A stretch of DNA of 64,000 nt from an uncultured Pseudomonadota bacterium (GCA_900315145.1 OMYE01000016.1:2385-66384); one strand, 5' to 3'. Counted from the stretch's first letter, positions 6,248 through 59,546 are shown. The notes: a model not told the origin generated them from the letters alone. Program-made: numbers and translations.

Positions 6248-6466
6248 CTATTTAATCATTTTTCTTTCTTCGACACCATTAATTCTGACAGCTTCAGCAA
6301 TTTTCTTGTCAGTATAGTGCTTACTTAGAGCATAGAAAGCCCAGCAGATGCTGACAGGATAGCCGAAACCGGTTAAACAGAAAATCAGACAGAATATTCC
6401 CTGAAACGGCTTGCCCAGAATAAACAATACCAGAAAAGGAAGCAGGATAGCAAGTACAATCATCAT
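6248..6466 (-). CDS. small membrane protein, Pmp3/YqaE (UPF0057)-like with a C-terminal extension
   Basis: 72 aa. AILLPFLVLFILGKPFQGIF...GFGYPVSICWAFYAL parallels E. coli YqaE (IILPPLGVLLGKGFGW...LGYIPGLIHAFW). Confidence 0.5.
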   Translation of the reverse strand: MMIVLAILLPFLVLFILGKPFQGIFCLIFCLTGFGYPVSICWAFYALSKHYTDKKIAEAVRINGVEERKMIK

Positions 6467-6568
6467 GGCAAAAAAACTCCATTAAAAATCAAAAATAAAC
6501 ATTGCAATTCTTATACACGGCATCCGGGGATTTCAACCGGGAATAATAAATCAGTGAACCATCTTCGA

Positions 6569-9500
6569 TTAAAGCAGCTTATTCAGTACCTGAAGCGGGT
6601 GCATAATGGTAACCTGTTCCATTCGGCGAACCTGTTCTCGACATGAATAACCGGTTGCCAGACACTGTTCAATCGGATATTTCTTAAATACCGGAGCCCA
6701 GTTTTCTTTATAAATTGCCTTGCTCCGTTCAACATTTCCGGCAATATGACCATATAAACCAGCCATACCGCAACAGCCTACAGGAACCGGCACCAGTCTG
6801 ATACCTGCTTTGTCAAAAATTCTGGTCCAGTCACCATGTGTTGTCGGCTTAAGACTCTTCTGAGTACAGTGTGCCAGCAGGTAGTACTCCTTGAGACCTG
6901 CTTTCTTATCATCGGCAACACTCTTCACTGCATCAAGATTGTCAAGAAGCCATTCCTGGGTAAGCTGCACCAGAAAATCACCTCGATCATCACCTAAAAT
7001 TTTCCGGTATTCATCACGATAACAAAGAGTCATGGCAGGATCAACTCCAACCATAGGAATACCCAGTCTGTACACTTGATTGTAGAAATCGGCAGTTGAC
7101 TTAGCCATTCTGGCGAATTCTCTCATGTATCCACGAATATGCGCCACCTTGCCGTTAGGCTTTAACGGGAGAATTACCGGAATTCTGCCGAGCTTTTCCA
7201 CAAGTTCCACAAAATCGGCAATCACTCTGGCATCATAGGCTGTGGTAAAGGCATCCTGAACCAGAATGACATACTTCTTTCTGTCTTCGGCTGATAAGGC
7301 ACTTAACTTTTCCAAATCAAGATATTCTGCACTGGTATTCTTCACCAGAGTGTTGAATGTCGGGTAACTGATCTCCGGAACATCAACAAAACCCCACAGC
7401 TTTTTAGTCATGTATTTAACCGGTGTCAGACCGTTTACAGTATTCAGAAGTCTAGGTATTCTAGCCATAAAAGGTGTGGCAGTCTCAATATTTTTAATAA
7501 GGAGATCGCCTGCCGGTCTTAAATAACGTCCGTAATAAAGATTTAAAAATCTGGATCTGAAATCAGGAACATCTACCTTTACAGGACATGCTGAAGCACA
7601 GGCTTTACATGCAAGGCAGCATTCCATTACCTCTCTCACCTCATGACTGAAATCATCACTCTGACTATTACTCAGGGTATTGCTGATTCTGGCAAACAGA
7701 TCCTTCAATCTTAAACCCGGTTCATCCAGCTTCTTTTCCTCATCAAGAGGATTTACCCCGGCAAGCTCCATTAAACGCAGCCATTCACGGGTGAGTCCAG
7801 CTCTTCCCTTAGGAGACTGACGGCGATCACCTAACAACTTATACGTCGGGCACATCGGTGCAGTCTTGTCGAAATTAAAGCACAGTCCGTTACCATTACA
7901 GGTTACGGCTGCTCTAAAGCTCTGTCTTACCTCCTTAGGGATTGTTCTGTCAAACGTACCTCTCTTAACGTCATCAACACTTACAAGATGATCTACATCA
8001 TTTCCCCATGGGATGCATATCTTACCCGGATTCAGGCGGTTATTCGGATCAAATGCAGCCTTAACCTTTCTCAGTTCATCAAACAGTCCCCCGAAAAATT
8101 CCGGACCGTATTCAGAACGGAATCCTCGGCCGTGTTCACCCCACATAATGCCACCATACTTGGCGGTAAGAGCAACAACAGAATCAGAAATTTCACGCAA
8201 TGTCTTTTCCTGCTCAGGGTCGCAGAGATCCAAGGCAGGTCTTACATGGAGTACACCTGAATCAACATGACCGAACATACCGTAGGTAAGTCCGTGGCTG
8301 TCCAGAAGTGCTCTGAATTCCTTAATATAATCCGCAAGATGCTTCGGCGGAACTACAGTATCCTCAGTAAACGCAATCGGCTTGGCGTCACCGGCGGCAT
8401 TGCCTAAAAGACCTACAGCCTTCTTGCGCATTGCGTACACAGCAAGAATATCCTTAAGATCAACACAGGTTTGATAACCGATAATCCCCCTGCTGTTACC
8501 GGCACTGCCAAGCTCGGCATCCAGAACGTCGATTAAGGCCTTCATTCTGCCACCTTCAAGTTCATTGTCCCATCCGGCAAATTCAACGATATTGATGCCG
8601 TCCATGGTCTTATCAGGAACTTCTTTTATCAGATCCTTAACACTGTGCCATACAATATCCTGTTTGGCCAAATTAAATACCTTGGAATCCACTGTTTCTA
8701 CAGAAAGTGCATTTGCCTCCACTAGAACCGGAGCATGTCTCAGTGCAGAATCAAAGCTGTCATACTTGATAACAACCAGTGAACGGTAGCTTGGTACCGG
8801 AGTAAGATCCACCTCTGCTCCGACAATAAAGCCCAGAGTACCTTCAGCACCGCATATGATACGGGATATGTCCAGAGTGTCTATTTCAGGATCATATACA
8901 TGCTTGAGATCATAACCGGTTAAAAATCTGTTTAGATCCGGAAAGGTGTTGATAATCTCATCCCGTTTATTTCTGGCAATATTGTATACTGTACGGTAGA
9001 TACGACCTTCCATATTCTCCATATCAAGCTTGGCCTTAAGCTCATCCCCGCTTACCGGCGCAAAGGTTACCAGAGAACCGTCAAGCAGCACCACGTCAAC
9101 ACTTATAATATGCTGTGAGGTTTTGCCATACTTAAGAGACCCCTGACCTGAAGAGTCATTACTTATCATACCGCCGAAGGTGGCACGGTTTGAGGTTGAT
9201 AACTCTGGAGAAAAGAAGAGACCGTGAGGTTTAATCTGCTGGTTCAAATAGTCCTTAATAACACCAGCTTCAACATGTACGCGGCGCTTCGCCACATCCA
9301 GACCGGTGATACCGCGCATATGTCGGGACAGATCTACAACCACCCAATCAGTGAGTGACTGACCGTTAGTACCTGTACCGCCGCCTCTTGGAGCGAATTT
9401 TATAGAGGCGAATTCCGGCTCATTGGCAATCTTTACCGCCAGCACGACATCCTGAGCATTTTTAGGCAGAATCACCCCCGCCGGGATCTTCTGATAAACG

Positions 9501-11086: not shown

Positions 11087-12271
11087 ATGATTAACCCAAA
11101 AATGTACGAACTCGGTTCACGTCGCAGTGTTATCAGAGAAATATTTGAATACGGCAAACTCAGAAAACAGGAGGTAGGTGAAGACAAGGTTTATGATTTC
11201 AGTATCGGCAATCCAAGCGTTGAAGCACCTGCAGCCGTAGCTGAACGCGTAAAAGAACTTCTTGAAGTAAATCCTTCTACTCTGGTTCACGGCTATACCT
11301 CTGCTCAAGGAGATCCTAAAGCACGTCAGGCCATTGCAGATGATTTAAACAACAGATTCGGCACCTCTTTTACAGGTAGCAATGTTTATCTAACCTGCGG
11401 TGCTGCTGCCTCACTGACCATCTCACTAAGATCCGTTATCGACAGTGAAAATCAGAATGTTATGGTTTTTGCTCCGTTCTTTACTGAATACAGAGTATTC
11501 ATTGAATCCATGGGAGCATCCATACAGGTAGTACCGGCATCATTCCCTAAACTAGACCTTAATTTAGACGCCTTTGAGAACATGATTAACGACAAAACAG
11601 TTGCCGTTATTCTTAACTCTCCTAACAACCCTACCGGTGTTGTTTACAGTGAGGAACAGATTATGAGACTCGCTGAAATTCTCAATAGAAAAAGTGCTGA
11701 ATTCGGTCACCCTATATACATCATCTCTGATGAACCTTATCGTGAAATAACCTATGGTTGCGTACCGCCTTTTATCACAAAATACTACGCAAATTCCCTT
11801 ATCTGCTACTCATACAGCAAGGGGCTGTCACTACCAGGAGAACGTATTGGATATATCCTTGTTCCGGATGTAATGCCTGAATGGCAGAACATGTACGCTG
11901 CAGTCTGCGGTGCCGGCCGTTCACTAGGCTTTATTTGTGCTCCAACAATGTTCCAGCACGTAATCACCAAGTGTGCACCGCTCACCTCGGACCTTAGCAA
12001 ATATGCAGCAAACAGAGACCTTATTTATAACGGACTAACTGAGCTGGGTTACGAATGCGTGCGTCCTGACGGAGCCTTCTACTTGTTTGTAAAATGTCTT
12101 GAGGATGATGCCAATGCATTCTGCATGAGAGCAAGAAAATATGATCTGCTACTGGTACCTAGTGATGATTTCGGCTGTCCGGGATATGTCCGCATAGCCT
12201 ACTGTGTATCAGCTGATACCATCAAAAACTCTATGCCGGCATTCAAAGCTTTAGCTGAGAGCTACAAATAA
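11087..12271 (+). CDS. PLP-dependent class I/II aminotransferase (AspC/AlaA-like)
   Basis: 394 aa with motifs FSIGNPS, NSPNNPTG and YSYSKGLSLPGERIGY (the Lys-containing SxSK motif). Confidence 0.8.
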   Translation: MINPKMYELGSRRSVIREIFEYGKLRKQEVGEDKVYDFSIGNPSVEAPAAVAERVKELLEVNPSTLVHGYTSAQGDPKARQAIADDLNNRFGTSFTGSNVYLTCGAAASLTISLRSVIDSENQNVMVFAPFFTEYRVFIESMGASIQVVPASFPKLDLNLDAFENMINDKTVAVILNSPNNPTGVVYSEEQIMRLAEILNRKSAEFGHPIYIISDEPYREITYGCVPPFITKYYANSLICYSYSKGLSLPGERIGYILVPDVMPEWQNMYAAVCGAGRSLGFICAPTMFQHVITKCAPLTSDLSKYAANRDLIYNGLTELGYECVRPDGAFYLFVKCLEDDANAFCMRARKYDLLLVPSDDFGCPGYVRIAYCVSADTIKNSMPAFKALAESYK

Positions 12272-12557
12272 TTTCAGCGAACCGGAACACTGCTGATTTA
12301 AGATTTTAAAAGCTTAAAATCTGATTATCCGCATTCTGATATGAAAGTTAAGAAGCGACTCAATATATTAAATTTGAATCGCTTTTTATTTGTGTCATCA
12401 GAAGAATGCCGTTACGTCACAATGTTAAAAAAATCTGCACCATATCCGGATTTCATATTGCCATGCATGAATTAGCAGAAAACGTTCTCTAAAAGTGATA
12501 AAATCAGCAGTATTTACTATAAATATTTACTATATTTTTTTGTATATGGGGCAGACA

Positions 12558-12818
12558 ATGGAAATTAAGCATTTAGACTACGTTACAACCGGCGTATGCG
12601 CTAGAGTTATATCACTCGACATTGATGAGAATCATGTTCTCTCAAATGTTCATTTTCTCGGCGGATGCAACGGCAATCTTAAAATGATAGCCAAATTTGT
12701 AAACGGCATGAAGGCAGAGGATGTTGTAGCAAAATGTTCGGGAAATCTCTGTGGTAATAAAAATACCTCATGCGCTGATCAACTGGCTCACGCTGCAGAA
12801 GCCGCTCTTAAACTGTAG
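12558..12818 (+). CDS. TSCPD-domain / TIGR03905-type small 4-Cys protein
   Basis: Motifs TTGVCAR...GGCNGNLK...CGNKNTSCADQLA. I chose the ATG at 12558 (MEIKHL...). The GTG at 12495 in the ORF track adds an implausible leader. Confidence 0.6.
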   Translation: MEIKHLDYVTTGVCARVISLDIDENHVLSNVHFLGGCNGNLKMIAKFVNGMKAEDVVAKCSGNLCGNKNTSCADQLAHAAEAALKL

Positions 12819-14833: not shown

Positions 14834-16660
14834 ATGCCAATTTACCGGAATATTGTTGTTGACATTCCATCTAAATGCTATATCGAGAAAAAGGATCAAA
14901 GTGTATTTGTAAAGGACAGGAACGAATATGATCCTGCTGTGAAATATAATCGGGTAAGCCATGTAATTATCGGCAGGGCAATTGACAAGACAAGGATGTA
15001 CCCCAACCATAATTTCCGCATGAGATATCCTGAAGCTTTTCAGCAGGCGGCGGGAGAACCGCAGCTGAAATCCATAAAGAGGATGGGGATGTATGCCGTT
15101 GTCCTGGCTCTTCTGGAAAAGAACTCCATGTACCGGTGCCTGCACGAAACCATGGGAATTGAGTCGGCAAACCTGATTCTTGATTTTTGCATGTATTCCA
15201 TACTCCATCATTCAGCTGTTTCCGATCACTTCAGAACAGCCATGTCTGAACAGCTGCTGTTCTCCCGCAATCTCAAATCCGGAAAGGATTTATCTTCGTT
15301 TTTTAATCAGGATGAGAATATTGAAAGGCTGGAAAGGTTCAAGACAGAATGGGCAGGAGCCTGCAAAAAACGCGGGATAAAGAATGTCTGGCTGGCAATT
15401 GACGGCTCAAATAATGATTGCGCCGCAGATGCCGATATTGCTGAGCGGGGGTACGCAAAATCCAAAAAGGATGTTCCGGTCGTTAGTTATCTTTATGCTG
15501 TTGACAGCAGTGACGGAACCCCGATAAGCTTTGATGTTTACCGGGGCAGCCGAGTTGACAGCAAAGCCGTTATGAAAATGATCGGATGGCTGAAAGCATA
15601 TGAGATGAATGTCAAAGGGGTGGTGGTTGACCGGGGTTTTGCAACCAAAGATGTTCTTGAGATGCTTGACAGCAATGAACTTCAATATGTTGCCATGCTC
15701 AAGGGAGATACAAACGCTCATAAGACAATGCTTGCCGAATATGCATCCAAAATCAGCAGGCAATTCGAGTTCATGCTGGACAGATATGATAACAGCGGAA
15801 AAACAGACAATGTCAGAGTCTTCAGCAGTAATGACAATGTTTACTATGGGATATCATCAGAGGATAAGGTTAAGCTGTTTAAGCAGCATAAGTATAAGGC
15901 TTATGTTTCTCTGATTTTTGACGGACAGAACGGTGAGGAGCGCCAGCAGAACTGGTTTAAAAAGGTCTCTAATGCTGCGGTGGATTTGCAGAACAGACTG
16001 AATTCAGGAGAAGATGCCAAAGTTCCGAAGGAATTTGAAAAAAGCATGGAAATCCAGCAAAATGAAGGCAGGAAAACAGTCCTGATAAATATGGAAAAAG
16101 TACAGATCTGCGGCGATCAAAAAGGATTCAGTTCTCTTGCAACTTCCGAAAAGATGAGCGCCGGAAGAGCCAATGAAATTTACACCATGCGAAGCTCTGT
16201 TGAAGCTGATTTTGCGATAGTTAAAACTCAGCTTGGTTACGGCAAGACCGGAGTACACAGTGAAACTGGGATAAAAACCAAGATTTCCATTGGTTTCATC
16301 GCCTCTGTGATTCGAAATGAACTGCTGAAAGCTGCAAAAAAGGCGGGACTTCCTACCAATAAAATAGCAAAGGAAATCAACTACATTACGATGGGGCTCA
16401 ATCAAAGCGACCGGTATTTTGTCTCTCATACCGAAAGTAAGAAACAAAAAGAGTTCCTTAAGGAATGCGGTGTTCTCCCTGCAGATCTGGATCGTATAGC
16501 CGAGGCTGAAAATAAGAGAATTTCCAGTAAAGAACCGAACCCGTTCCACAAATTCCCTAAAGCTAACACAAAGGAAAAAAAGTCAAAGAGCGGACAGTCA
16601 AAAGCTGACAATTCCTCCGTCAGCGGGACATCATCTGTTACTGCTGGCAAAGAGGAATAA
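14834..16660 (+). CDS. DDE transposase, IS4 superfamily
   Basis: 608 aa. Candidate catalytic D (WLAIDGSNND), D (VVVDRGFAT) and E within an exact Y-x2-R-x3-E-x6-K motif (YTMRSSVEADFAIVK), which is the IS4-family signature. Confidence 0.85.
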   Translation: MPIYRNIVVDIPSKCYIEKKDQSVFVKDRNEYDPAVKYNRVSHVIIGRAIDKTRMYPNHNFRMRYPEAFQQAAGEPQLKSIKRMGMYAVVLALLEKNSMYRCLHETMGIESANLILDFCMYSILHHSAVSDHFRTAMSEQLLFSRNLKSGKDLSSFFNQDENIERLERFKTEWAGACKKRGIKNVWLAIDGSNNDCAADADIAERGYAKSKKDVPVVSYLYAVDSSDGTPISFDVYRGSRVDSKAVMKMIGWLKAYEMNVKGVVVDRGFATKDVLEMLDSNELQYVAMLKGDTNAHKTMLAEYASKISRQFEFMLDRYDNSGKTDNVRVFSSNDNVYYGISSEDKVKLFKQHKYKAYVSLIFDGQNGEERQQNWFKKVSNAAVDLQNRLNSGEDAKVPKEFEKSMEIQQNEGRKTVLINMEKVQICGDQKGFSSLATSEKMSAGRANEIYTMRSSVEADFAIVKTQLGYGKTGVHSETGIKTKISIGFIASVIRNELLKAAKKAGLPTNKIAKEINYITMGLNQSDRYFVSHTESKKQKEFLKECGVLPADLDRIAEAENKRISSKEPNPFHKFPKANTKEKKSKSGQSKADNSSVSGTSSVTAGKEE

Positions 16661-21681: not shown

Positions 21682-23502
21682 ATGGAAGAACTTTATCGGC
21701 AGAATCTCGAAATTACCGATGATCTGCTGAATCTCATTCTGGTTTCAGCCGCGCTCAGCCTCATCTGCCACCGCAGACAAATCTATACTTCCGCACAGAT
21801 TACAGAAATATCAGAAGATCTCCGTGAACCGTGCCTTCTTTCCAGATATCTCAGCAATCAGCAGGATATAGGTCACTATAAACGACTAGTGGATGCCCTG
21901 CTTCCTAGAGATCTTTACTGGACGGAAATGCAGATAAAACTCACTCCGACTCTTTTCAGACAAACATTTGTATATGAAAAAAACTGCGACCCTCTCGGTT
22001 TTCTTTACATTTCATGCAAGTGCCTGAGACAACGCAAGGCGGCCGGCATTTACTACACTCCTACTAATGTAGTTCTTAAGCTCATAGAAGGCATTTCCTC
22101 TGATAAAAACTATCAGGAAAGGAATTTCATTGATCCGTGCTGCGGTACAGGGAATTTTCTTATTCAGCTTCCCGATGACGTCCCCTTTTCCCATATATAC
22201 GGCAATGACATTGACGAAACCGCCGTCAAACTCGCCCGCATAAGCATGGGACTTAAATATCCTGATGTAACTGCGGAATCACTTGAATCACATCTGGTGG
22301 TCTCAAACTATCTTACCGGCATATTTAAACTGGGAGAATTTGACTATGTAATAGGTAATCCTCCATGGGGCAGTGTCTTTACCTTTGAGGAGGAAAAATT
22401 CATTAGGGAAAACTTTGTCTGCGCCAAAGAAGTAAGACACCCGGAATCCTTTGAGCTGTTCATCGAGGAGGGACTTAAAGAACTTACCGGACAAGGAGTT
22501 CTTTCATTTGTCGTTCCTGAAAGTATTCTTAACGTTAAATCCCATATAAATATCAGAAAAATAATTATGGAAAAAACCTGTATTTCTGAAATACAGTTTT
22601 TAGGAAATGTTTTTGACGGAGTGCAGTGCCCTTCCATCATTCTTAAACTGAAAAAAAACGAACGTGGGCTGAATACCAAAGGAATGATCGTAAAAACTCC
22701 GAAAAGAACCTTCACCATCAATAAAAAACGGCAGGTTGATGCTGAAAACCTCAGCTTTAATCTTAATGATGACGAATATGAAGTAATCCGCCAGATTCAG
22801 AAAACAGGTACCCTGTCATTAAAAGATCATGCCTCGTTCGCTCTTGGAATAGTAACCGGAAACAACAGAGATTTTCTTCATATCCATAAAACATCAAGGA
22901 ATGAGGAATATATCCTTGCAGGTCTCGATATCAATAAATACGCTTACGAACCAGGTAAATCATATATAGAATTCCGACCGGAAAAATTTCAGCAATGTGC
23001 AGACGAGTCATTCTTCCGTGCTCCGGAAAAGCTTATATACAGATTCATTAACAAAAAGCTAATCTTCGCCTATGATAATCGGAAAATACTTACTCTAAAC
23101 AGTGCCAATATCATCATTCCTGATCATCCGAAGCTAAACATATTCTATGTTCTTGCTGTTCTTAACTCAAGAATAGCCCAGTTCTATTTTTCTTTTGTAT
23201 TCAATTCAGTGAAAGTGCTGCGCTCCCACCTTGAGAATATTCCTATTCCCGATGTATCCCCAGAAAAACAGCTATTGGTTAAACAGCTGGTTTTAAAAAT
23301 CATCAGAAAAGACAATCTGGAGAAAAATTCAGCTCCCGCACTGGATAAAATGTCTCTTACTCTCTCATCTGCCGGTAAAAATTTGGTGGAACCGCAGGAA
23401 TTTCAAAAGATCTATGACGAAATAGATGAACTTATCGCTGAACACTACGGACTTACAAAAAAATCCTACAATCTGCTCAAAACAGCAGTGGATAATATAT
23501 AG
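21682..23502 (+). CDS. N6-adenine DNA methyltransferase, gamma class (Eco57I/TaqI-like with a TaqI_C-type target-recognition domain)
   Basis: AdoMet motif I DPCCGTGNFLIQL, catalytic motif IV IGNPPWG, and a C-terminal LAVLNSRIAQFYF...LENIPIP typical of TaqI-like TRDs. No endonuclease gene is adjacent. Confidence 0.85.
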   Translation: MEELYRQNLEITDDLLNLILVSAALSLICHRRQIYTSAQITEISEDLREPCLLSRYLSNQQDIGHYKRLVDALLPRDLYWTEMQIKLTPTLFRQTFVYEKNCDPLGFLYISCKCLRQRKAAGIYYTPTNVVLKLIEGISSDKNYQERNFIDPCCGTGNFLIQLPDDVPFSHIYGNDIDETAVKLARISMGLKYPDVTAESLESHLVVSNYLTGIFKLGEFDYVIGNPPWGSVFTFEEEKFIRENFVCAKEVRHPESFELFIEEGLKELTGQGVLSFVVPESILNVKSHINIRKIIMEKTCISEIQFLGNVFDGVQCPSIILKLKKNERGLNTKGMIVKTPKRTFTINKKRQVDAENLSFNLNDDEYEVIRQIQKTGTLSLKDHASFALGIVTGNNRDFLHIHKTSRNEEYILAGLDINKYAYEPGKSYIEFRPEKFQQCADESFFRAPEKLIYRFINKKLIFAYDNRKILTLNSANIIIPDHPKLNIFYVLAVLNSRIAQFYFSFVFNSVKVLRSHLENIPIPDVSPEKQLLVKQLVLKIIRKDNLEKNSAPALDKMSLTLSSAGKNLVEPQEFQKIYDEIDELIAEHYGLTKKSYNLLKTAVDNI

Positions 23503-24265: not shown

Positions 24266-24294
24266 TGTGAGATATTTGCCATATTATTGTAAGC
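24266..24294 (+). promoter_or_regulatory. distal upstream box of sRNA-1: TGTGAGA-N15-TGTAAGC (GacA/UvrY-like half-sites in direct orientation)
   Basis: The same arrangement recurs at 25078-25107 and 28387-28415. Each lies 179-182 bp upstream of a TACAAT -10 hexamer. Confidence 0.5.
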
Positions 24295-24459
24295 TATTCG
24301 TAATTCATCACTTTTAAAACTCAGTTTTTTAATTATTAAAAAAACTCAGTAACTGCAATACTTTAAGAGCCATTTTTCATGTCTTACAAAGTCTCACAAG
24401 AGAAATTAATTTGAACTGCGTCATAATTTTAATAAATCACTCCATGTACAATTATAAAC

Positions 24460-24702
24460 AAGCAACGGGGACAAGGATGTCACAAGTTAGCATGAAGCTA
24501 TAGACCGCTGTACAAGGCTGGATGCCTGAGAACAGGATGTTTACAGGCAAGATGCCACTGATTCGGAACAAGGATGTTCCATTATGTATGCAATGAATGC
24601 GTGCATGTCAAATAACAGGATGTTATTTAAGAATATATTGAGAGATAAGAAGTTATAATCTAGCTGTCAGAATATGGATGTTCTGACAGTTTAATTTTTT
24701 TT
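24460..24702 (+). ncRNA. CsrB/Rsm-type CsrA-sequestering sRNA, copy 1 (ends approximate)
   Basis: TACAAT -10 at 24447-24452. Hairpins with GGA in the loop: GAC-aaggat-GTC (24470-81), GGC-tggat-GCC (24516-26), AAC-aggat-GTT (24532-42), GGAAC-aaggat-GTTCC (24565-80), AATAAC-aggat-GTTATT (24611-27). The terminator CTGTCAGAA-tatggatg-TTCTGACAG plus a T-run ends ~24702. A second hairpin plus T-run lies at 24704-24741. Confidence 0.75.
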
Positions 24703-25077
24703 AGGTTCTGCCTTCATCCTAAGGCAGAACCTTTCTGTTTTTACAGCAGCATATTTCCTGTCTTTTACATTTCTCCATAACTGTCAGGATGCTCGTCTTC
24801 CTCAGGTTGGCTGTTTAATAACGTTTAAAAGTCCGCTGTTCTATTCTGTTTATTCCGATACAATGGTTATCCAGTACGAATTCTTCATCAATTCTTTCCG
24901 ACATAGCTGGATAAAACAAAAGAAATTACCAATCTATTATAAAATCCTTAAAAGGAAAAATATCCGATTAGAAAGAATTATGATAACCGGCTTGGTTCAA
25001 AAAAATTAACACCTATAAACATAATTCTCCAAAAAAATAACAATTTTCCCGGTTTTATGGAGAATAATCTCACTTTT

Positions 25078-25107
25078 TGTGAGACATTAACCATAATCAC
25101 TGTAAGC
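25078..25107 (+). promoter_or_regulatory. distal upstream box of sRNA-2: TGTGAGA-N16-TGTAAGC
   Basis: The sequence tgtgagacattaaccataatcactgtaagc is nearly identical to the copy-3 box. It lies 182 bp upstream of TACAAT (25260-25265). Confidence 0.5.
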
Positions 25108-25271
25108 AAAGCAAAAAACATTACGTTCTACCGCAGCAGGGAAAATCAATTCAAAATATCTTTATTTACAAGGGTTTGATAGATGTAACATCATTATCTC
25201 ACACGCCAAATAATCGATAAAAATTGATTTAAATCAAAAAATACAGTTTTATGAATATATACAATTATAAA

Positions 25272-25492
25272 TGTCAGGGGGGACAAGGAAGTCCAAAAGC
25301 AAGATTAAAACCCTGAGCACACGGTCTTAATCTGTTATACAGGATGTTGACGGATATTAAGACATTGCGGAACATGGAAGTTCCTGTACATGCCAACTTT
25401 TACAAGGATGTAATCGCCGGCACACAAATCGCACATACAATATATTATACGTTCGGATCATTCTGACAGATGGTGATCCGAACTTTTTTTTT
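25272..25492 (+). ncRNA. CsrB/Rsm-type sRNA, copy 2 (ends approximate)
   Basis: Hairpins GGAC-aaggaa-GTCC (25281-94), TCTGT-tatacaggatgttg-ACGGA, GGAAC-atggaa-GTTCC (25369-84) and TTTAC-aaggat-GTAA(t). The terminator GTTCGGATCA...TGATCCGAAC is followed by T9 and ends ~25492. Confidence 0.75.
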
Positions 25493-25694
25493 GCCTAGAT
25501 TTCACATATATCCATTTTTATATGCAGAAAAACATAAGCATACCACGATACAGAAACAAGTGTGTTTCCGCTTTATATACAACTTTTTATAAAAAATGCA
25601 GACATCATATCCGCCCTTCCGGATACAGATAACTGTATGCTGTTAACTTGTAAAGATGCTGCACAGATTTATCAATCACGGTATTGCTTAAAAA

Positions 25695-26444
25695 TCAGGA
25701 TATCTGAGACAGAAAATCCTTTAACCTCTGTGATTCCGGGTGCTCAAAAATTCTATCCGGAGTTCCTTCCTCCTGGATTATCTTATCAGCAAAAAACAAC
25801 ACTCTGTCAGATACACTTCTGGCAAATTTCATTTCATGAGTAACCACCAGCATAGTCATTTTCTGATCAGCAAGCTCCTTAATCATCGCCAGAACCTCAT
25901 TAACCATTTCAGGATCAAGAGCACTTGTGGGTTCATCAAAAAGAATAATTGCTGGGCTCATGGCAATAGTTCTGGCAATGGCCACACGCTGCTGCTGACC
26001 GCCTGACAGTTGAAGAGGATACTTATCGGCGTGTTCAGCAAGACCTATTCGTTCAAGCATCCGCATACTCCATTCATCAGCCTCATCCTCAGTCATCAGG
26101 CCGTGAACAACCGGTGCCATCGTTATGTTCTTTCTCACAGTCATATTATGGAAAAGATTAAACTGCTGAAACACCATACCGATTTTCGGAATAATTTCCG
26201 TTAATTTTTTTTCGGAAAGGGATGTCAGCTCTGTATCTTTAAAATATATTCTGCCAGAGGTCGGTCTTTCCAGAAGGTTCAGCATTCTGATAAATGTTGA
26301 CTTACCGCATCCTGATGGACCGATTATGGCAATAACATCTCCCTGATTGATATCCAGAGAGATATTTTTGAGTATTTCCTTTTCACCGTAGCTTTTACAG
26401 AGATTATCAATCCTCATGATCACTTTAGAATCATTATCTTTCAT
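25695..26444 (-). CDS. polar amino-acid ABC transporter ATP-binding protein (GlnQ-like)
   Basis: 249 aa with Walker [10 protein letters not shown], signature [13 protein letters not shown] and Walker [12 protein letters not shown]. Overlaps the upstream permease gene. Confidence 0.9.
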
Positions 26445-27945
26445 TTTTCTTTAATCTCCTCTCCAGAATACTTACAGCAAATGACAGCGAACCGATAATA
26501 ATGAAATAAATTAAAGCTACTGCAAGCAAAGGCAGGAAAGCCTCAAAGGTAATATTTCTAATGATCACCCCGCCTCTGGTTAGATCCATAAGACCTATGT
26601 AGCCACATATTGAGGTTTCCTTAATCAGAGATATACCTTCATTGGCAAGTGACGGCAGAACATTCTTGAAAGCCTGTGGCAGTATAATATATCTCATAGT
26701 CGTGCTAAGCTTAAAACCGAGACTGTAGCCTGCCTCATACTGTCCATTAGGAATAGCCTTGATACCTCCTCTGATAATCTCCGCAGTATACGCCATGGAA
26801 TTAAAACCGAAGGCGATAATGGCCACAAAAATCTTGTTAATATCCACAGAAGCAAAAATTACATAATAAATAATCAGAAGCTGTACCATTACTGGCGTGC
26901 CTCTCACTAGATTTATGTATAACTTAATAAGCATATTCAAGATCTTAAATGAACCATTCCTGTAGTTAACAGCTCTGATTATGGCCATAACCGTGCCACC
27001 AACAAGCCCGATAACCGCTGAGAACACTGATATAATTAAAGTTATCCCCAAACCGTTCACCAGCATTTTCCAGCGGTTTTCTTTAATGAAGTTGTTATAA
27101 AACTTATCTTTAAGGTCTGCAATACTAAAAGAACTGGCATTATTGTTAGGAACAATGAGATAGATCCTTGAGGCAAACGTCTTATCAGTAAAATTAACTA
27201 CTTTAGCTCTTTCCTCTGTTCTGGAAAATCCTGAAAACCCCACATCCACCTTACCGGAGCTCACAGCATTGATGATACTGTCAAACTCCATGCTTTCAAT
27301 TTCAAGTCGCATATGCAGTTTATCTGCTATCATTCTGGCCAGTTCTATTTCCATACCGACTATTTGGTTATTCTCGTAATACTCATATGGAGGAAAATCA
27401 GGACTTGAAGCAATGGTAAGAACCGGACCATCCTTAACCTTCTGTTCATAATGATAGTCAGAAATATTCAGAACATAGGTGTTTCTAAGTTTATCAAACA
27501 TTCCCTCCTTCTTGATTTCTTCAATAGCGGTATTAATTTTCTTTAAAAGATCGACTTTATCCTTGTTTACTATGGCTGCATATGACTCAGGCTCAAAAGA
27601 ACTCTCTATAAGAGTAATCTGCGGAATGGTCTTGACAAATTCAAATGCCGGCAATTCATCCATAACCACCACGTCGAGTTTTCCCTGTACCAGAGCTGTC
27701 ACCGCATCAGGAGTTCCGTTATAACCTTCAGACAGATTACATTTATTTTTAGATAGATAATCATTAGCTACTCTTTCCATTGTGGTACCTATCTGAACAC
27801 CTACTCTGGCTCCGCACAGATCCTCCATACCATTAATCTGGCGTCCTTTATCATTACATGCCGTTAATAAAAACAGCATCATTATAAAAAATACAGGGAA
27901 CAGCCATAAGGACGTTCTCCGTTTTTCAGCTCTGAATAAACACAT
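26434..27945 (-). CDS. fused substrate-binding domain / permease of a polar amino-acid ABC transporter (GlnP/HisM-type TMD)
   Basis: 503 aa with a lipoprotein-type signal (LFLLTA-C), ~250 aa of type-II SBP sequence, then a 5-6 TM permease with an EAA-type region ([26 protein letters not shown]). The SBP halves are in permuted order (see findings). Confidence 0.85.
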
Positions 27946-28386
27946 AAAAACATCGACTCTTAAAATTTAAATTGCAATAAACCATATAGCCGTCATGCTC
28001 CGACAGCTAAATCATCATATTTTGCGTTTTTCTTATTGTTATTGTTTATTTGAAATAATTTTGAAAACAGGAATAGTGTTTAAAATTGTCCTGAACTGTT
28101 ACGCATAGGAGAACCGGCATGTTCACTCATGCGCGCCTGAATGCTTAATTATGTCTGATTATTTTAGTTTGCATCCGGACAACAGTTATTGAACAGCTGC
28201 GATAAAATCCGCAAAGGCACATGCTATTTTACTGATATTTATATATTTCATCCACATCTAAGATAAAAACATCTAAAATCTTTTAATTTTATCTCCTTAG
28301 CATTCATTCAACTATTCACCGGGGAACAAAAAAATTCTGAAAATATCTCTCAGAATCGTACAAAAATAGTCACTTTCGCTATTCCT

Positions 28387-28415
28387 TGTAAGACATTAAC
28401 CATAATTTTGTAAGC
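28387..28415 (+). promoter_or_regulatory. distal upstream box of sRNA-3: TGTAAGA-N15-TGTAAGC
   Basis: tgtaagacattaaccataattttgtaagc lies 179 bp upstream of TACAAT (28566-28571). Proximal GCTTACA boxes are at 28501 and 28511. Confidence 0.5.
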
Positions 28416-28578
28416 AAAACAAAAGACGTACATTTTCATTCAACATAATAGTTATTAAAAAAAAATCTTATTTTTCAATACTTACAAAAGATTTTTTATG
28501 GCTTACAAAGGCTTACACGGCAAAAAATATTGATCTATATCAAAAAAATCATATAAAAGAGTATATACAATAGAAAAT

Positions 28579-28790
28579 GTCAGGGGGACATGGAGGTCCG
28601 CAACGATAAGTTACCCTAGACATTCAAAGTTTTATCCGTTTACAGGATGTTGACGGACGGAGACTTAGGAACAGGGAAGTTCCTTATATTTAGGGCTTGA
28701 ATTTACATGGATGTAATAACAGCCTAAGATTTACAGGTTCGGACCATTTTGGACAGATGGTGGTTCGGACCTTATTTTTTTCTCTTTAAA
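28579..28790 (+). ncRNA. CsrB/Rsm-type sRNA, copy 3 (ends approximate)
   Basis: Colinear with copy 2: GGAC-atggag-GTCC, TCCGT-ttacaggatgttg-ACGGA, GGAAC-agggaa-GTTCC and TTTAC-atggat-GTAA. The terminator GGTTCGGACCA...TGGTTCGGACC is followed by a T-run ending ~28790. A second hairpin (aaaccgg...ccggttttt) lies at 28799-28825. Confidence 0.75.
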
Positions 28791-29360
28791 AACCGGTAAC
28801 ACGCCGGTTTTTGTTTTTATTTCGATTAGGATAAACTGAATAACGACACTTTTATCGCGAGTTCACTCCATTCACGTCTCTATCAACTGCTAGTAGTTTT
28901 CTTTTTTATCATATGTGCTGTAATAATAGTGAAACTTCCGGCATTGACAGTTATTCTAATATCTCCATATTCTCCGTACCAGTTTTTACCGGAACGGTAT
29001 ATCCGGGAATTAGGACCTCACGACAAAAGGAAACAGCATCCTGCCACGGTGACAACCGCAGATTTCGAATGATTCTTTTCTCACCCAATGAGGTGGTTTG
29101 AAGATTATCCACACCTAGGTGAAATGCTGTCAGACTATCGTCGATAATTCCATTAGCACACATGCTATATATACATCTATAAGACCAGTAATACCACAAA
29201 CAATATATCACATCAAAGTCATGAGATAATACATCAATCATTAATAGTTTTTGTGAACTCTTAAAATAACAGAAATAGAGTAATTAACGACACTTAAGTC
29301 AGAAGATTTAATTTAGATTACAAAAGAAATAGAAGAATGCTATTTAGTGAAAAACTTCAT

Positions 29361-29445
29361 TGGTACCCGAGGCGGGACTTGAACCCGCACGCCATTACGC
29401 ACTACCACCTCAAGGTAGCGTGTCTACCAATTCCACCACCCGGGC
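29361..29445 (-). tRNA. leuU: tRNA-Leu (anticodon GAG)
   Basis: The reverse complement reads GCCCGGGTGGTGGAATTGGTAGACACGCTACCTTGAGGTGGTAGTGCGTAATGGCGTGCGGGTTCAAGTCCCGCCTCGGGTACCA. It has a long variable arm, anticodon loop UUGAGGU and an encoded CCA. Nearly identical to E. coli leuU and, as in E. coli, downstream of secG. Confidence 0.95.
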
Positions 29446-29497: not shown

Positions 29498-29582
29498 TGG
29501 TACCCGAGGCGGGACTTGAACCCGCACGCCGTTACGCACTACCACCTCAAGGTAGCGTGTCTACCAATTCCACCACCCGGGC
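29498..29582 (-). tRNA. leuU: tRNA-Leu (anticodon GAG), tandem second copy
   Basis: Identical to the 29361-29445 copy except for one base in the variable arm (A/G). The spacer between the two is 52 bp. Confidence 0.95.
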
Positions 29583-29664: not shown

Positions 29665-30459
29665 TTATTTTTCAGTTTCTGTTGTGTTTGTTTCTTTTTT
29701 ATCCACTGACTCAGCTGAATCAGGAGTCACAACCTTCTTTACATCGTCAGCAGCGTTGTTTAAAGAGGCTTTGGCAGCTTCAACATTTTCTCCAACAGCC
29801 TTGTTAACTTCAGCAACTTTGTCATTAACCTGATCGACAGCTTCACTTACTTTATTCTGAACACTGTCAGCCGCATCACTTACAGCCTGCTTGCCGTCTT
29901 CATAAGCAGCCTTAGCCTGTTCAGTAGCATTACCTACAGCCTGCTTGCCGTCTTCATAAGCAGCCTTAGCCTGTTCAGCAGCTTTACCTACAGCCTGCTT
30001 GCCGTCTTCATAAGCAGCCTTAGCCTGTTCAGCAGCTTTACCTACAGTCTGCTTGCCGTCTTCATAAGCAGCCTTAGCCTGTTCTGCCGCCTTGTCAACT
30101 GCTTCACCGGCCTTCTCAGTCAAAGACTTCTTTTCAGTATCCGCCTTGTTTTCATCAGCGGATGCAGACTTCTTGTCTTCTGCAACTATCACACTGAAAT
30201 CATCACTGCTGAGTTTACTACGGTGAGTAGTAATATAACCTAAAGAAATAGTCAGAACGGCAAATACTGTGGCAAGTATCCATGTTGACTTAACAAAGAA
30301 GTTGGCACTGCCTACAGAACCGAACAAAGTATTTGAGGCACCGGCCCCAAATGAAGCTCCCATGCTGGCGCCCTTTCCCTGCTGCATCAAAATAAAAGCA
30401 GCAAGAATAATCGCTACGATCAAGTCGAGCACTATAAGTATTGAATAAGCATAATCCAT
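29665..30459 (-). CDS. secG: preprotein translocase subunit SecG with a long repeat-containing C-terminal extension
   Basis: The first ~80 aa (ILIVLDLIVAIILAAFILMQQGKGASMGASFGAGASNTLFG...) are canonical SecG. The remaining ~150-180 aa are hydrophilic and A/K/E-rich, with four 18-aa repeats. Confidence 0.85.
   Translation of the reverse strand: MDYAYSILIVLDLIVAIILAAFILMQQGKGASMGASFGAGASNTLFGSVGSANFFVKSTWILATVFAVLTISLGYITTHRSKLSSDDFSVIVAEDKKSASADENKADTEKKSLTEKAGEAVDKAAEQAKAAYEDGKQTVGKAAEQAKAAYEDGKQAVGKAAEQAKAAYEDGKQAVGNATEQAKAAYEDGKQAVSDAADSVQNKVSEAVDQVNDKVAEVNKAVGENVEAAKASLNNAADDVKKVVTPDSAESVDKKETNTTETEK
29867..30102. repeat. 54-bp tandem repeat, ~4.4 copies, inside the secG 3' half
   Basis: Units start at 29887, 29941, 29995 and 30049 (ctgcttgccgtcttcataagcagccttagcctgttcagcagctttacctacagc). 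They are near-identical and encode (G)KAAEQAKAAYEDGKQAV. Confidence 0.9.
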
Positions 30460-51183: not shown

Positions 51184-51949
51184 CAGTCAGAATAGCCGTG
51201 CGGTTCAGAATAAACTCTGATAGCTTGAGTATCAAGAGTCACTATTCTGTCCGCACCACGTCGTAAAGCAAGCAGAAAAAACACCTTAATTATTCTCCCT
51301 TTTTTTAATTTCACTTTCCACAGACATTTGCCCTGTACGGATATATCTAATTCTTTCTCTGCTTAACATTTAAACCGATTCAATATAAATTCATCAGATA
51401 CATTTCCAGAATAATACACATTCCGTTACTCATTCTCCGTTTTATTCTCACAGTTTTTACTGACTGTTATCATATTTTTATATTCAGTAGCTATTATTAG
51501 TCTGAAACATGGTTGTACAATGAAATCCGATATCGTATTTGAGATTCCGCAGTCAGGGATAAAACGCCGTAGCTCTATCTGAATAACATATTGTAAAGAT
51601 AGGTCTGTCCGGAAAAACTTCCTGATGGTTAATATAAGATAACCGGTTTCCCCTAAGGAAAATTATCTCCCTTCAGGATACCATTTACCGTAATCATCAT
51701 AAGGGGCTTGCTTAAACGGACAAAATAAAAAAACATGGATGTTGACCGGGCCCAAAAGGCGGAAACGCCTGCTGTTCATAAACTAGACTTATGATTTTTA
51801 TGCCGAACAGCCAAGGTTCTTACGATACATATAACCTCTATCTATCGCCTATGACTTTCACGGAAAAACGAAGCCTGCCACACTTCAGTTAGACAGCGAC
51901 TTGTGAATTTTCCGGTAAAAATCACTGGACCGTTAGAATAGAATTCTGA

Positions 51950-51986: not shown

Positions 51987-52379
51987 ATGCCCATGCGCAA
52001 AATTGCTATCTTTTTATTTCTTTCCGCTCTTACCGTACCTGCCTGGGCCGGATTTCAGCAGAATAATGTCAACACCGGCAACGGCGGTTTCGTAGGACCT
52101 GGAGCCACAGCAGGTGTCACCACTGTTGCTCAGGCGAAATCAGCCCGTGACGACAGCCCTTGCGTTCTCACAGGAAGCATTGTACAGCGTATGCCAAGCG
52201 ATAATGATCACTATCTGTTCCGCGATTCCACAGGAGACATTCTTGTAGATATCGATGATGAACTGTTTATGGGACGCACAGTCACACCTGAAACAGTAAT
52301 CCGTATTTACGGTGAAGTGGATAACGAGGTTTTTGAACGTACCAAAGTTGACGTAAAGAATATGGAGATATTGAAATAA
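51987..52379 (+). CDS. ygiW: YgiW/YdeI-family periplasmic OB-fold (BOF) stress protein
   Basis: 130 aa with a signal peptide. TVAQAKSARDDSPCVLTGSIVQRM..DHYLFRDSTGDILVDIDDE....IRIYGEVD matches the family pattern. Confidence 0.8.
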   Translation: MPMRKIAIFLFLSALTVPAWAGFQQNNVNTGNGGFVGPGATAGVTTVAQAKSARDDSPCVLTGSIVQRMPSDNDHYLFRDSTGDILVDIDDELFMGRTVTPETVIRIYGEVDNEVFERTKVDVKNMEILK

Positions 52380-58733: not shown

Positions 58734-59546
58734 ATGATGCTGCTTTTCATAATAAAGACAATAGTATGCTTCGGAATCATGTACTGTGCTACCCGGTTTT
58801 ACGGTAATGTCAGTGACAACCTGTTGGTAAAGGCGTTCCTTTGTCTAGTAATCATGTTTGCCACATACTGGGTTGATGTATACAGATTTTCATCTATATT
58901 CCTCAACTACTATCTGGCACTTAGAAACTATCGCAAAGGAAAGTACAACAGGGCCTTTGCCACCTTCGAAGATTTACTCGGCAAGGAATTTGCGCCGTCA
59001 CTTCCTTATCTCGCCAGAATGAGATTTGAAGGATTAGGGACAAACATCAATATTGATGCCGCAAAGTTCTACTGTGAAAGAGCTATCAGAAATGATTTTT
59101 CCGAATGTCTCTATCTCCTTGCCGTCATTAATTTTTTCGGTGACAACCTGACAGAATACTTCTACAGCAGAAACAGTAAAAATAAGGCTGACAGACAAAA
59201 CAGTACTATAAAAACTGCAACAGAAGAAAACACTAAACCCTTAAGGAAAAATACTGTTACCAAAAAAAGAAGGACAAACACATATAAATCAGAAATGTCC
59301 CCTGATTACAACGAATGTGTGTTTCATCTTCACTCTTTTTTGGAAAAAGCTTCTGAAACTGATGCTAATTACGGTGATGCCTGTGCCCTTCTGGCGTACT
59401 GCCTCTATACAGGGAAAGGCGTGCCAAAGAATATTGAACAGAGTAACGCTCTTTTTAAGCATGCAACCATGCTGAGCGCCAAGAATGTGAAGTATCTAAG
59501 ACAATGTGCTATCGACAATATCGAAGTAGCAAATTACGTTATGTAG
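58734..59546 (+). CDS. membrane-anchored Sel1-like repeat protein
   Basis: Two N-terminal TM segments, then Sel1/TPR-like repeats (ARMRFEGLGTNINIDAAKFYCERA; AYCLYTGKGVPKNIEQSNALFKHA). Confidence 0.6.
   Translation: MMLLFIIKTIVCFGIMYCATRFYGNVSDNLLVKAFLCLVIMFATYWVDVYRFSSIFLNYYLALRNYRKGKYNRAFATFEDLLGKEFAPSLPYLARMRFEGLGTNINIDAAKFYCERAIRNDFSECLYLLAVINFFGDNLTEYFYSRNSKNKADRQNSTIKTATEENTKPLRKNTVTKKRRTNTYKSEMSPDYNECVFHLHSFLEKASETDANYGDACALLAYCLYTGKGVPKNIEQSNALFKHATMLSAKNVKYLRQCAIDNIEVANYVM

Follow-up and report, generated by a model that had tools for sequence, protein, structure and literature searches.

The CsrB and CsrC RNAs of Escherichia coli and Salmonella do not code for protein; GGA recurs in their hairpin loops, and each ends at an intrinsic terminator. 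A footprint of the response regulator UvrY was reported on an 18-nt repeat far upstream of both csrB and csrC (Zere et al. 2015; PMC4682653). In E. coli csrB, the repeat is TGTGAGAGATCTCTTACA, its centre lies at -183/-182, and an extra TGTAGGAGA stands 5 bp farther downstream; at csrC, the E. coli repeat reads TGTGAGACATTGCCGATA and the Salmonella repeat reads TGTGAGACATTGACCATT (PMC4682653). The Vibrionaceae possess several paralogous Csr small RNAs (sRNAs) per genome (CsrB/C/D; csrB1-4), which stem from duplication, have the VarA box TGTG[AC]GAGATCTCT[TC]ACA upstream, and may differ in regulation. In a species named both Aeromonas salmonicida and Aliivibrio salmonicida, csrB3 adjoins csrB2 (PMC6262261). 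The sponges RsmX, RsmY, and RsmZ of Pseudomonas are short (about 110-130 nt), have few GGA loops, and possess an upstream activating sequence (UAS) for GacA. The UAS is TATAGCGAAACGCTTACA, and rsmX-1 and rsmX-2 are tandem duplicates in several pseudomonads, each with its own UAS (PMC7911923). Here, we compare these systems with three loci in a stretch of 64,000 nucleotides from an uncultured Pseudomonadota bacterium (GCA_900315145.1 OMYE01000016.1:2385-66384; hereafter, the window, numbered from its first letter).

A reading made from the sequence alone (the sequence-only reading) had interpreted the three loci as genes for Csr/Rsm-type sponge RNAs. We conclude that they are very probably sibling Csr/Rsm-type genes for sRNAs predicted to bind and sequester the global regulator CsrA, because near-consensus CsrA sites lie in hairpin loops, each gene has its own predicted promoter and terminator, compensatory changes occur across species, and boxes resembling UvrY/SirA sites lie upstream. 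The earlier interpretation is thus supported by the loops, the terminators, and the covariation, and also by the boxes, on which it had not remarked. Membership in the sponge class is almost certain, and control of the BarA/UvrY type is predicted. The features of a sponge RNA that can be sought in a sequence, namely, GGA loops, likeness to the CsrA consensus, a predicted independent unit, and a UvrY-type box, all appear to be present.

Three related RNA genes and their conservation

Folding and a covariance model placed copy 1 (type I) at 24459-24702 (+ strand; about 240 nt from a predicted start), copy 2 (type II) at 25272-25492 (+; 221 nt), and copy 3 (type II) at 28578-28781 (+; 204 nt). 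The type II model (R1), which was built from six sequences, matched the window at 25272-25492, 28578-28781, and 24461-24699. Copy 1 lay outside the model seed and was still found with E=1.9e-7 in 412 kb; the type I and type II genes are therefore homologous. The same search gave no further credible copy in the window, and a match at 59262-59440 (-; E=0.035) was rejected as spurious, being apparently coding sequence. No open reading frame (ORF) of at least 50 aa overlaps the three loci, and short ORFs are not common to the copies. These searches bear out the earlier description of three ORF-free loci on the + strand. In a direct-repeat scan, the loci aligned piecewise. Each contains one occurrence of the 5' hairpin GGGGACA.GGA.GTC, the block ACAGGATGTT.AC.G, the hairpin GGAACA.GGA.GTTCC, and a 21-nt upstream block, and the shared elements TACAATTATAAA and TACAATAGAAAA were found at the loci. 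The TACAAT promoter element and the 5' GGGG(G)GAC run are present as described, and the GGGGAC...GTC 5' hairpin pattern is confined to these loci on the + strand of the window.

The predicted RNAs display GGA in the loops of short hairpins. Copy 1 contains GACA-AGGA-UGUC, AACA-GGA-UGUU, GGAACA-AGGA-UGUUCC, and AAUAACA-GGA-UGUUAUU, and its fifth GGA loop belongs to the terminator (CUGUCAGAAUA-UGGA-UGUUCUGACAG, then a U run). A second terminator-like hairpin, AGGTTCTGCCTT...AAGGCAGAACCT with a T-rich tail, lies directly 3' of this copy (24703-24742, +). Copy 2 has four GGA-loop hairpins, which are GGAC-AAGGAA-GUCC, a long hairpin with an ACA-GGA-UGU tip, GGAAC-AUGGAA-GUUCC, and UUACA-AGGA-UGUAA. 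The hairpins of copy 3 are colinear with them (GGAC-AUGGAG-GUCC, UCCGUU-UACA-GGA-UGU-UGACGGA, GGAAC-AGGGAA-GUUCC, and UUACA-UGGA-UGUAA) and are followed by the terminator GGUUCGGACC...GGUUCGGACC and a U run. The pairs that had been cited for conserved stems with variable loops, GGAAC-atggaa/agggaa-GTTCC and TCTGT/TCCGT with ACGGA, are correct. A GGAUG terminator loop had been ascribed to all three copies; it exists in copy 1 (AUAUGGAUGUU), but the terminator loops of copies 2 and 3 (...GACAGAUGGUG...) contain no GGA.

In the minimum free energy (MFE) structures, copies 1, 2, and 3 have 5, 4, and 5 GGA wholly in hairpin loops, as the sequence-only reading had proposed, compared with dinucleotide-shuffle means of 0.35, 0.23, and 0.58 (maximum 1-3). 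The MFE z-scores against such shuffles were -3.5, -2.8, and -3.6. Adjacent GGA loops are about 30-55 nt apart, a spacing within the range bridged by a CsrA dimer. The fit to the CsrA consensus also held: eight of the ten ACA(N)GGATGT sequences on the + strand of the window fall within the three loci, and the - strand has none. The consensus RTACARGGATGT, derived by systematic evolution of ligands by exponential enrichment (SELEX), had 33 window matches with two mismatches or fewer (16.2 ± 4.4 expected), and 8 of the 33 are located in the approximately 660 nt of the three RNAs. Three matches in the RNAs (GGACAAGGAUGU, GAACAAGGAUGU, and UUACAAGGAUGU) have a single mismatch. Nine intrinsic-terminator-like sites were found in the 5.1-kb region, compared with 2.7 ± 1.4 expected; the scan lists one that ends copy 1 and another immediately after it, and in the folds, the terminators of copies 2 and 3 are stems of 10-14 bp followed by U runs. 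The conserved -10 element, the stem and U-run terminator, the lack of a conserved ORF, and the opposite-strand neighbours predict an independent non-coding unit at each locus.

The array recurs in other species. A synteny-free scan of JGI metagenome contigs with a pattern common to the three paralogues (ACAGGATGT, 15-45 nt, GRAACANGGANGTTYC) returned 21 stretches, some from the window species and others from at least two different species. In at least two other metagenomic species, one type I gene is followed by two or three type II genes on the same strand. Species B (contig L091) has its type I gene at 6305-6523 and type II genes at 6943-7174, 7609-7840, and 8193-8408; species C (L093) has a type I gene at 11088-11303 and type II genes at 11695-11922 and 12446-12659. 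Several of these copies fall outside the search pattern and were recovered by adjacency or the covariance model alone. The array in all these species is located directly downstream of the mechanosensitive-channel gene mscK (-) and an Eco57I/TaqI-like DNA methylase gene (+), the products of which are 52-58% identical to those of the window. Methylase orthologues led to more array contigs from a variant of species C (L113, with the same gene order, and L114) and from a fourth species (L112, where the contig ends within the type I gene). The arrays of species B and C are uninterrupted and lack the ABC transporter operon found between copies 2 and 3 in the window; the operon therefore accounts for the wider spacing of these two copies. 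The ancestral arrangement is therefore a continuous tandem array in which a gene recurs about every 600-750 nt.

The conserved RNA structure was evaluated across species; six strains of the window species are 99.6-100% identical across the loci and therefore give no covariation signal. When 15 distinct type II RNAs were re-aligned with model R1, 17 of the 50 base pairs showed changes on both sides, which agrees with the earlier claim of selection on RNA structure. Standard pairs occupy 88.5% of the alignment cells, a shift of the 3' partners by 1-3 columns lowers this figure to 29-52%, and none of 500 shuffles reached the observed covariation score. In the long hairpin that is tipped by ACA-GGA-UGU, 10 of 16 pairs have changed in a compensatory manner. 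The stem of the type II 5' hairpin changes from GGAC/GUCC to GAGAC/GUCUC and GAAAC/GUUUC, and the loop is constantly A(A/U)GGA(N). In type I, the core, made up of the central double-GGA hairpin and the GGAACA.GGAUGUUCC hairpin, shows almost no change between species, and the terminator covaries from AU to GC with GGA kept in its loop. One type I hairpin has a wholly different stem in each species and retains the GGA loop (AAUAACA-GGA-UGUUAUU, CCGAA-AGGA-UUUCGG, and CGAA-CGGA-UUCG). Nine homologous RNAs have 4-6 GGA wholly in hairpin loops, compared with shuffle means of 0.2-0.7 and a maximum of 3.

Other guides to relatives gave no array. ABC-transporter synteny led to seven Succinivibrionaceae loci (Ruminobacter and Succinimonas) in which the operon stands elsewhere, and GlmM/secG synteny led to four relatives (GlmM 80-87% identical) with no sRNA downstream of secG; the right-hand flank is therefore not conserved. 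None of these eleven loci, reached through the ABC transporter and glmM/secG anchors, contains an sRNA copy. A generic scan for clusters of GGA in any 4-bp hairpin was too noisy. An apparent GGA cluster in L008 proved to be part of a coding region, and the Lachnospiraceae locus L042 has a CA.GGA[TA]G cluster on the strand opposite a 636-aa ORF. Separately, G+C-rich metagenomic contigs of unrelated organisms have 2-4 GGA-loop hairpins each, at L099 1607-1745 (-), L101 8748-8799 (-), L104 1631-1682 (+), L100 74-130 (+), L108 9296-9484 (-), and L097 4291-4430 (+). Examples from L101 and L104 are CCGACAGGAUGUCGG, GGAACAUGGAAGUUCC, CUGCAUGGAUGCAG, and GUUCACGGAUGAAC, and TGTAAG-like sequences occur just upstream of the hairpins in L099, L101, and L104. 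These hairpins matched no Rfam family at the gathering score and scored 16-26 bits with model R1; they may be further undescribed Csr/Rsm-like RNAs.

Promoter boxes and the proposed mechanism

Eleven promoters from four species were aligned, and positions are given relative to a start predicted 7 nt after the -10 hexamer. Three blocks are conserved: a distal 18-mer with an additional half-site, proximal half-sites, and a CRP/FNR-type palindrome. The distal box consists of the 18-mer TGTGAGACATT(T/A)(G/A)CCATA and, 4-5 bp on, TGT(A/G)AG, and its core is invariant in the 11 promoters. The box of copy 1 (24266-24294, +), a predicted UvrY/GacA-type site, comprises TGTGAGATATTTGCCATA at 24266-24283 and TGTAAGC at 24288-24294. 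That of copy 2 (25078-25107, +) comprises TGTGAGACATTAACCATA at 25078-25095 and TGTAAGC at 25101-25107, and that of copy 3 (28387-28415, +) comprises TGTAAGACATTAACCATA at 28387-28404 and TGTAAGC at 28409-28415. The 18-mer centres are located at -184.5, -185.5, and -182.5 for copies 1, 2, and 3, respectively. The 18-mer has three matches in the 64-kb window, one per sRNA gene, and the pair of upstream TGTRAG half-sites occurs on the + strand only at the three loci. The window boxes agree with the footprinted csrC sites at 15 of 18 positions for E. coli, where the site was confirmed directly in the E. coli sequence, and at 16 of 18 for Salmonella; the latter figure is that of the copy 2 box and the Salmonella csrC SirA site.

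The proximal half-sites, (G)TCTCACA-N3-(G)CTTACA at about -70, are found in most type II promoters and in window copy 1, where the pair CTTACAAAGTCTCACA (24383-24398, +; about -70) is the reverse complement of the distal-box half-sites. Copy 3 has CTTACAAAGGCTTACA at 28502-28517 (+; about -70) and an extra CTTACA at 28481, and copy 2 retains TCTCACA alone. Between the distal and proximal UvrY-type boxes, the type II promoters share a further conserved block, CCTTTATTTTCAATGG, at about -125 (L091 6820-6840; window 28455-28475). IHF-like DNA bending, as at E. coli csrB, is a possible role of this block, but its fit to the IHF consensus is poor.

The core of the CRP/FNR-type palindrome, [T/G]TGA-N6-TCA, is invariant in 11 of 11 promoters; it is centred at -41.5 and located 21-22 bp upstream of the TACAAT/TAGAAT -10 hexamer. 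The box of copy 1 is TTGAACTGCGTCAT (24411-24424, +; centre about -41.5), and copies 2 and 3 have perfect FNR-consensus palindromes, TTGATTTAAATCAA (25224-25237, +) and TTGATCTATATCAA (28530-28543, +), both centred at -41.5. The exact sequence TTGAT-N4-ATCAA occurs twice in 64 kb, in the promoters of copies 2 and 3, compared with 0.27 expected. The -10 hexamer is TACAAT in each copy (24447-24452, 25260-25265, and 28566-28571, all +), and no -35 hexamer was found at 17 ± 1 bp from it at these promoters. With the predicted start, a palindrome at -41.5 without a -35 hexamer has the geometry of a class II CRP/FNR-dependent promoter. The half-sites mix TTGA (FNR-like) and GTGA (CRP-like), and no crp or fnr gene was seen in the loci searched.

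A mechanism can be proposed from these elements. Each gene would form its own transcription unit without a usable -35 hexamer. A phosphorylated UvrY/GacA-type response regulator would activate it from the 18-bp box and the extra half-site near -185, the DNA would probably bend toward the proximal half-sites at about -70 (in the type II genes and copy 1), and a CRP/FNR-family activator would bind the TGA-N6-TCA palindrome at -41.5 in class II geometry. The RNA of 200-240 nt, ended by the intrinsic terminator, would display four to five (A/N)GGA loops that resemble Shine-Dalgarno sequences, most of them flanked by ACA...UGU. Since loops at the observed spacing are bridgeable by a CsrA dimer, one RNA would hold about 2-3 dimers and titrate CsrA away from mRNA leaders. 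The three genes (three or four in relatives) would raise the dose and permit differential control of type I and type II.

More tentatively, we propose that these promoters combine an ancestral UvrY site (about -185) with a class II CRP/FNR-family site (-41.5) in an undescribed Csr sRNA family, held as a fixed tandem array of three to four genes in uncultured Succinivibrionaceae-like bacteria of the gut and rumen; CsrA antagonism would then need a second global signal. This proposal is possible rather than probable. If it is true, CsrA antagonism in strict anaerobes needs a redox- or cAMP-type signal besides BarA/UvrY, an AND-gate logic that has not been described for csrB/csrC or rsmX/Y/Z, and the two RNA types are differently tuned, with imperfect boxes in type I and near-perfect boxes in type II. 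The invariant CRP/FNR-type box suggests that the Csr circuit receives an additional signal. The csrC-type UvrY box is found at an E. coli-like distance despite a complete turnover of the RNA sequence; therefore, a promoter architecture can outlast the RNA that it drives.

Opposing evidence and alternative explanations

Several observations weigh against the assignment of these genes to the Csr sponges. No Rfam 15 Csr/Rsm family (CsrB RF00018, CsrC RF00084, RsmX, RsmY, RsmZ, or another curated family) matched at the gathering score or with E<=10 in a scan that included a single RNA searched alone with the laxest filters. The same scan scored E. coli csrC at 278.7 bits as a positive control, and in the reverse test, model R1 scored 5 bits or less on E. 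coli csrC. The genes csrA, uvrY/barA, and crp/fnr were not found in the window, in 118 other loci (tblastn with E. coli CsrA, UvrY, and FNR as queries against the window and these loci), or in the 10 kb beyond each window end. The partner proteins are assumed from knowledge of the Gammaproteobacteria, in which CsrA, a near-invariant protein of 61 aa, is, to our knowledge, near-universal. Four to five sites per RNA is a low number compared with CsrB. The 18-mer is weakly palindromic, like csrC and unlike csrB, and a window scan found no canonical TGTAAG-N6-CTTACA palindrome. The start sites on which the promoter positions depend are predictions rather than mapped ends. The type II covariation alignment was fitted to the model, and the metagenome search pattern required H3 and the H2 tip; therefore, their invariance is partly an effect of ascertainment. 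Finally, the type II RNAs of species B and C have a conserved GGA-free 3' segment, ACACACACAUGUAAGUC, which the sponge model does not explain.

This segment (GAUUUUAAAACACACACAUGUAAGUC) is located between the last GGA hairpin and the terminator (L091 6943-8408; L093 11695-12659). It is degenerate in window copy 2 (25420-25450) and absent from copy 3, and its role might be that of a seed for base pairing or of a signal for turnover.

Such a seed would suit the view that the genes encode sibling base-pairing sRNAs of the Hfq/ProQ type, similar to Qrr1-5 or PrrF1/2, in which the conserved loops pair with mRNAs. Tandem multi-copy sRNA genes with their own promoters and terminators would agree with this view, and the segment in the other species is conserved and unstructured; however, the candidate seed is missing from window copy 3, and the loop (A)GGA(U) looks like a Shine-Dalgarno sequence and not like the complement of one. 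Furthermore, each RNA presents the loop 4-6 times in the ACA-GGA-UGU hairpin setting that CsrA selects, the stems covary while the loops stay GGA, and the promoter bears a site for the regulator that activates csrB and csrC. Base-pairing sRNAs are thus a quite unlikely explanation.

We consider it very unlikely that the loci encode structured RNAs for another protein or another ribonucleoprotein role, with a merely convergent likeness to CsrA sites. The absence of csrA from the sequence searched (the window and other loci) and of any match to the known Csr/Rsm covariance models would be expected for such RNAs, but the 12-nt SELEX matches, three of them with one mismatch each, are very specific, the UvrY-type box stands at a csrB-like position, and the general occurrence of CsrA in this class, noted above, also speaks for CsrA as the partner. 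Cis-acting leaders or attenuators of neighbouring genes, or a functionless repeated intergenic or mobile element, are extremely unlikely: the copies are repeated DNA and flank the ABC transporter operon, but the flanking genes are on the opposite strand, so that the loci are not leaders, or lie beyond strong terminators, the operon is absent from the arrays of other species, the boxes, -10 element, and terminator are kept in each copy while the flanking proteins have diverged to 52-58% identity, and the copies have neither terminal inverted repeats nor a transposase.

Lineage, setting, and comparison with described systems

The source of these putative CsrA-sequestering sRNAs is, as judged from gene order and from GlmM and ABC transporter identities, an apparently Succinivibrionaceae-like, uncultured gammaproteobacterium of the gut. 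The window has a G+C content of 40%, and its gene orders rlmE(ftsJ)-ftsH-folP-glmM-secG-tRNA-Leu and grpE-dnaK-dnaJ-greA are typical of Gammaproteobacteria. Its GlmM is 83% and 79% identical to two proteins labelled 'Succinivibrionaceae bacterium' in the protein database, 68% identical to those of Succinatimonas hippei and Succinivibrio sp., and 67-69% identical to those of Aeromonadaceae. The nearest relatives of the ABC transporter within the array are those of Ruminobacter and Succinimonas (64%). The same species (99.9% DNA identity) is frequent among ENA metagenome assemblies, and no genome in the GTDB representative set gave a high-identity match. The lineage is near the Aeromonadaceae, where Csr sRNAs are expected.

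The transporter operon between copies 2 and 3 (25695-27945, -) is of the amino-acid type and comprises two genes, one for a 503-aa fusion of substrate-binding protein and permease and one for a 249-aa ATPase; it does not belong to the sRNA system. Two near-identical tRNA-Leu genes stand in tandem between copy 3 and secG (29364-29445 and 29501-29582, -; 51 bits each). SecG of the window (29665-30459, -) is unusually long at 264 aa, and in the part of the gene for its C terminus (about 29860-30100, -), an internal repeat recurs about every 54 nt. The secG products called in strains of the same species have 210, 246, or 264 aa; therefore, the repeat number varies. The methylase beside the array is called with 754 aa in other strains, and the longest window ORF has 606 aa (21682-23502, +). 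The strain alignment is interrupted at about 21250, upstream of this ORF, where about 37-38 nt are missing. Because of the shorter ORF and this break, the methylase gene of the window strain may be 5'-truncated. A 608-aa ORF is present at 14834-16660 (+). The matching position in strain L006 is occupied by a gene for a 608-aa DDE_Tnp_1 transposase, which strains L001-L005 lack there; this suggests an insertion polymorphism. A single near-consensus CsrA-type site, AAACATGGATGT, is intergenic at 51731-51742 (+), about 250 nt upstream of a 130-aa ORF (51987-52379) with a signal-peptide-like start; it could mark a CsrA target leader or be a chance occurrence.

The sequence-only reading knew of no description for this lineage. 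Within the literature library searched, there was likewise no paper combining Succinivibrio* with CsrA or 'carbon storage regulator', and the Rfam result agrees. The mechanism is well known, and the RNA family matches none described and is undescribed for the lineage. The Succinivibrionaceae, an abundant gut group in ruminants, pigs, and some human populations, are genetically almost unstudied. Csr sRNAs offer a handle on their global regulation of carbon and lifestyle, and the new covariance model would let annotation pipelines label genes that Rfam now misses. The RNAs are compact, with four to five near-optimal CsrA hairpins, which would make them a practical minimal sponge in biochemistry or synthetic biology.

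The host shares its class with E. coli and Salmonella. The window 18-mer is near-identical to the footprinted csrC site, and as at csrB, an extra half-site follows about 5 bp downstream of a box centred near -183/-185. However, no covariance-model match exists in either direction, and the CRP/FNR-type box at -41.5 has no comparable counterpart at E. coli csrC. The RNAs here have 4-5 sites in 200-240 nt, whereas CsrB has about 18-22 sites in about 369 nt and CsrC, an RNA of 246 nt, has about 9-13; the sites here are nearer the SELEX optimum. The genes form a tandem array, in contrast to the dispersed csrB and csrC of E. coli and Salmonella. Like the Vibrionaceae, the window species has several paralogous Csr-type sRNA genes. 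The Vibrio copies were mostly relocated after duplication, whereas the array of three to four genes has been kept in place across species; the RNAs here are also shorter than those of Vibrio, and their promoters have a csrC-type box instead of the symmetric csrB/VarA form. The small number of GGA loops and the upstream activating site recall Pseudomonas RsmX/Y/Z, from which these RNAs differ in lineage and sequence family, with no Rfam match, and in the second, CRP/FNR-type site at -41.5. The description of such close clustering as unusual was overstated, given the tandem rsmX-1/rsmX-2 (PMC7911923) and csrB2/csrB3 (PMC6262261).

On this comparison, the three RNAs appear to be functionally like CsrB/CsrC, Vibrio CsrB-D, and Pseudomonas RsmX/Y/Z and members of none of these sequence families. 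Their distinctive features are an array of three to four genes with two RNA types, apparently maintained in place across species, and the putative activator box at -41.5 in every promoter.

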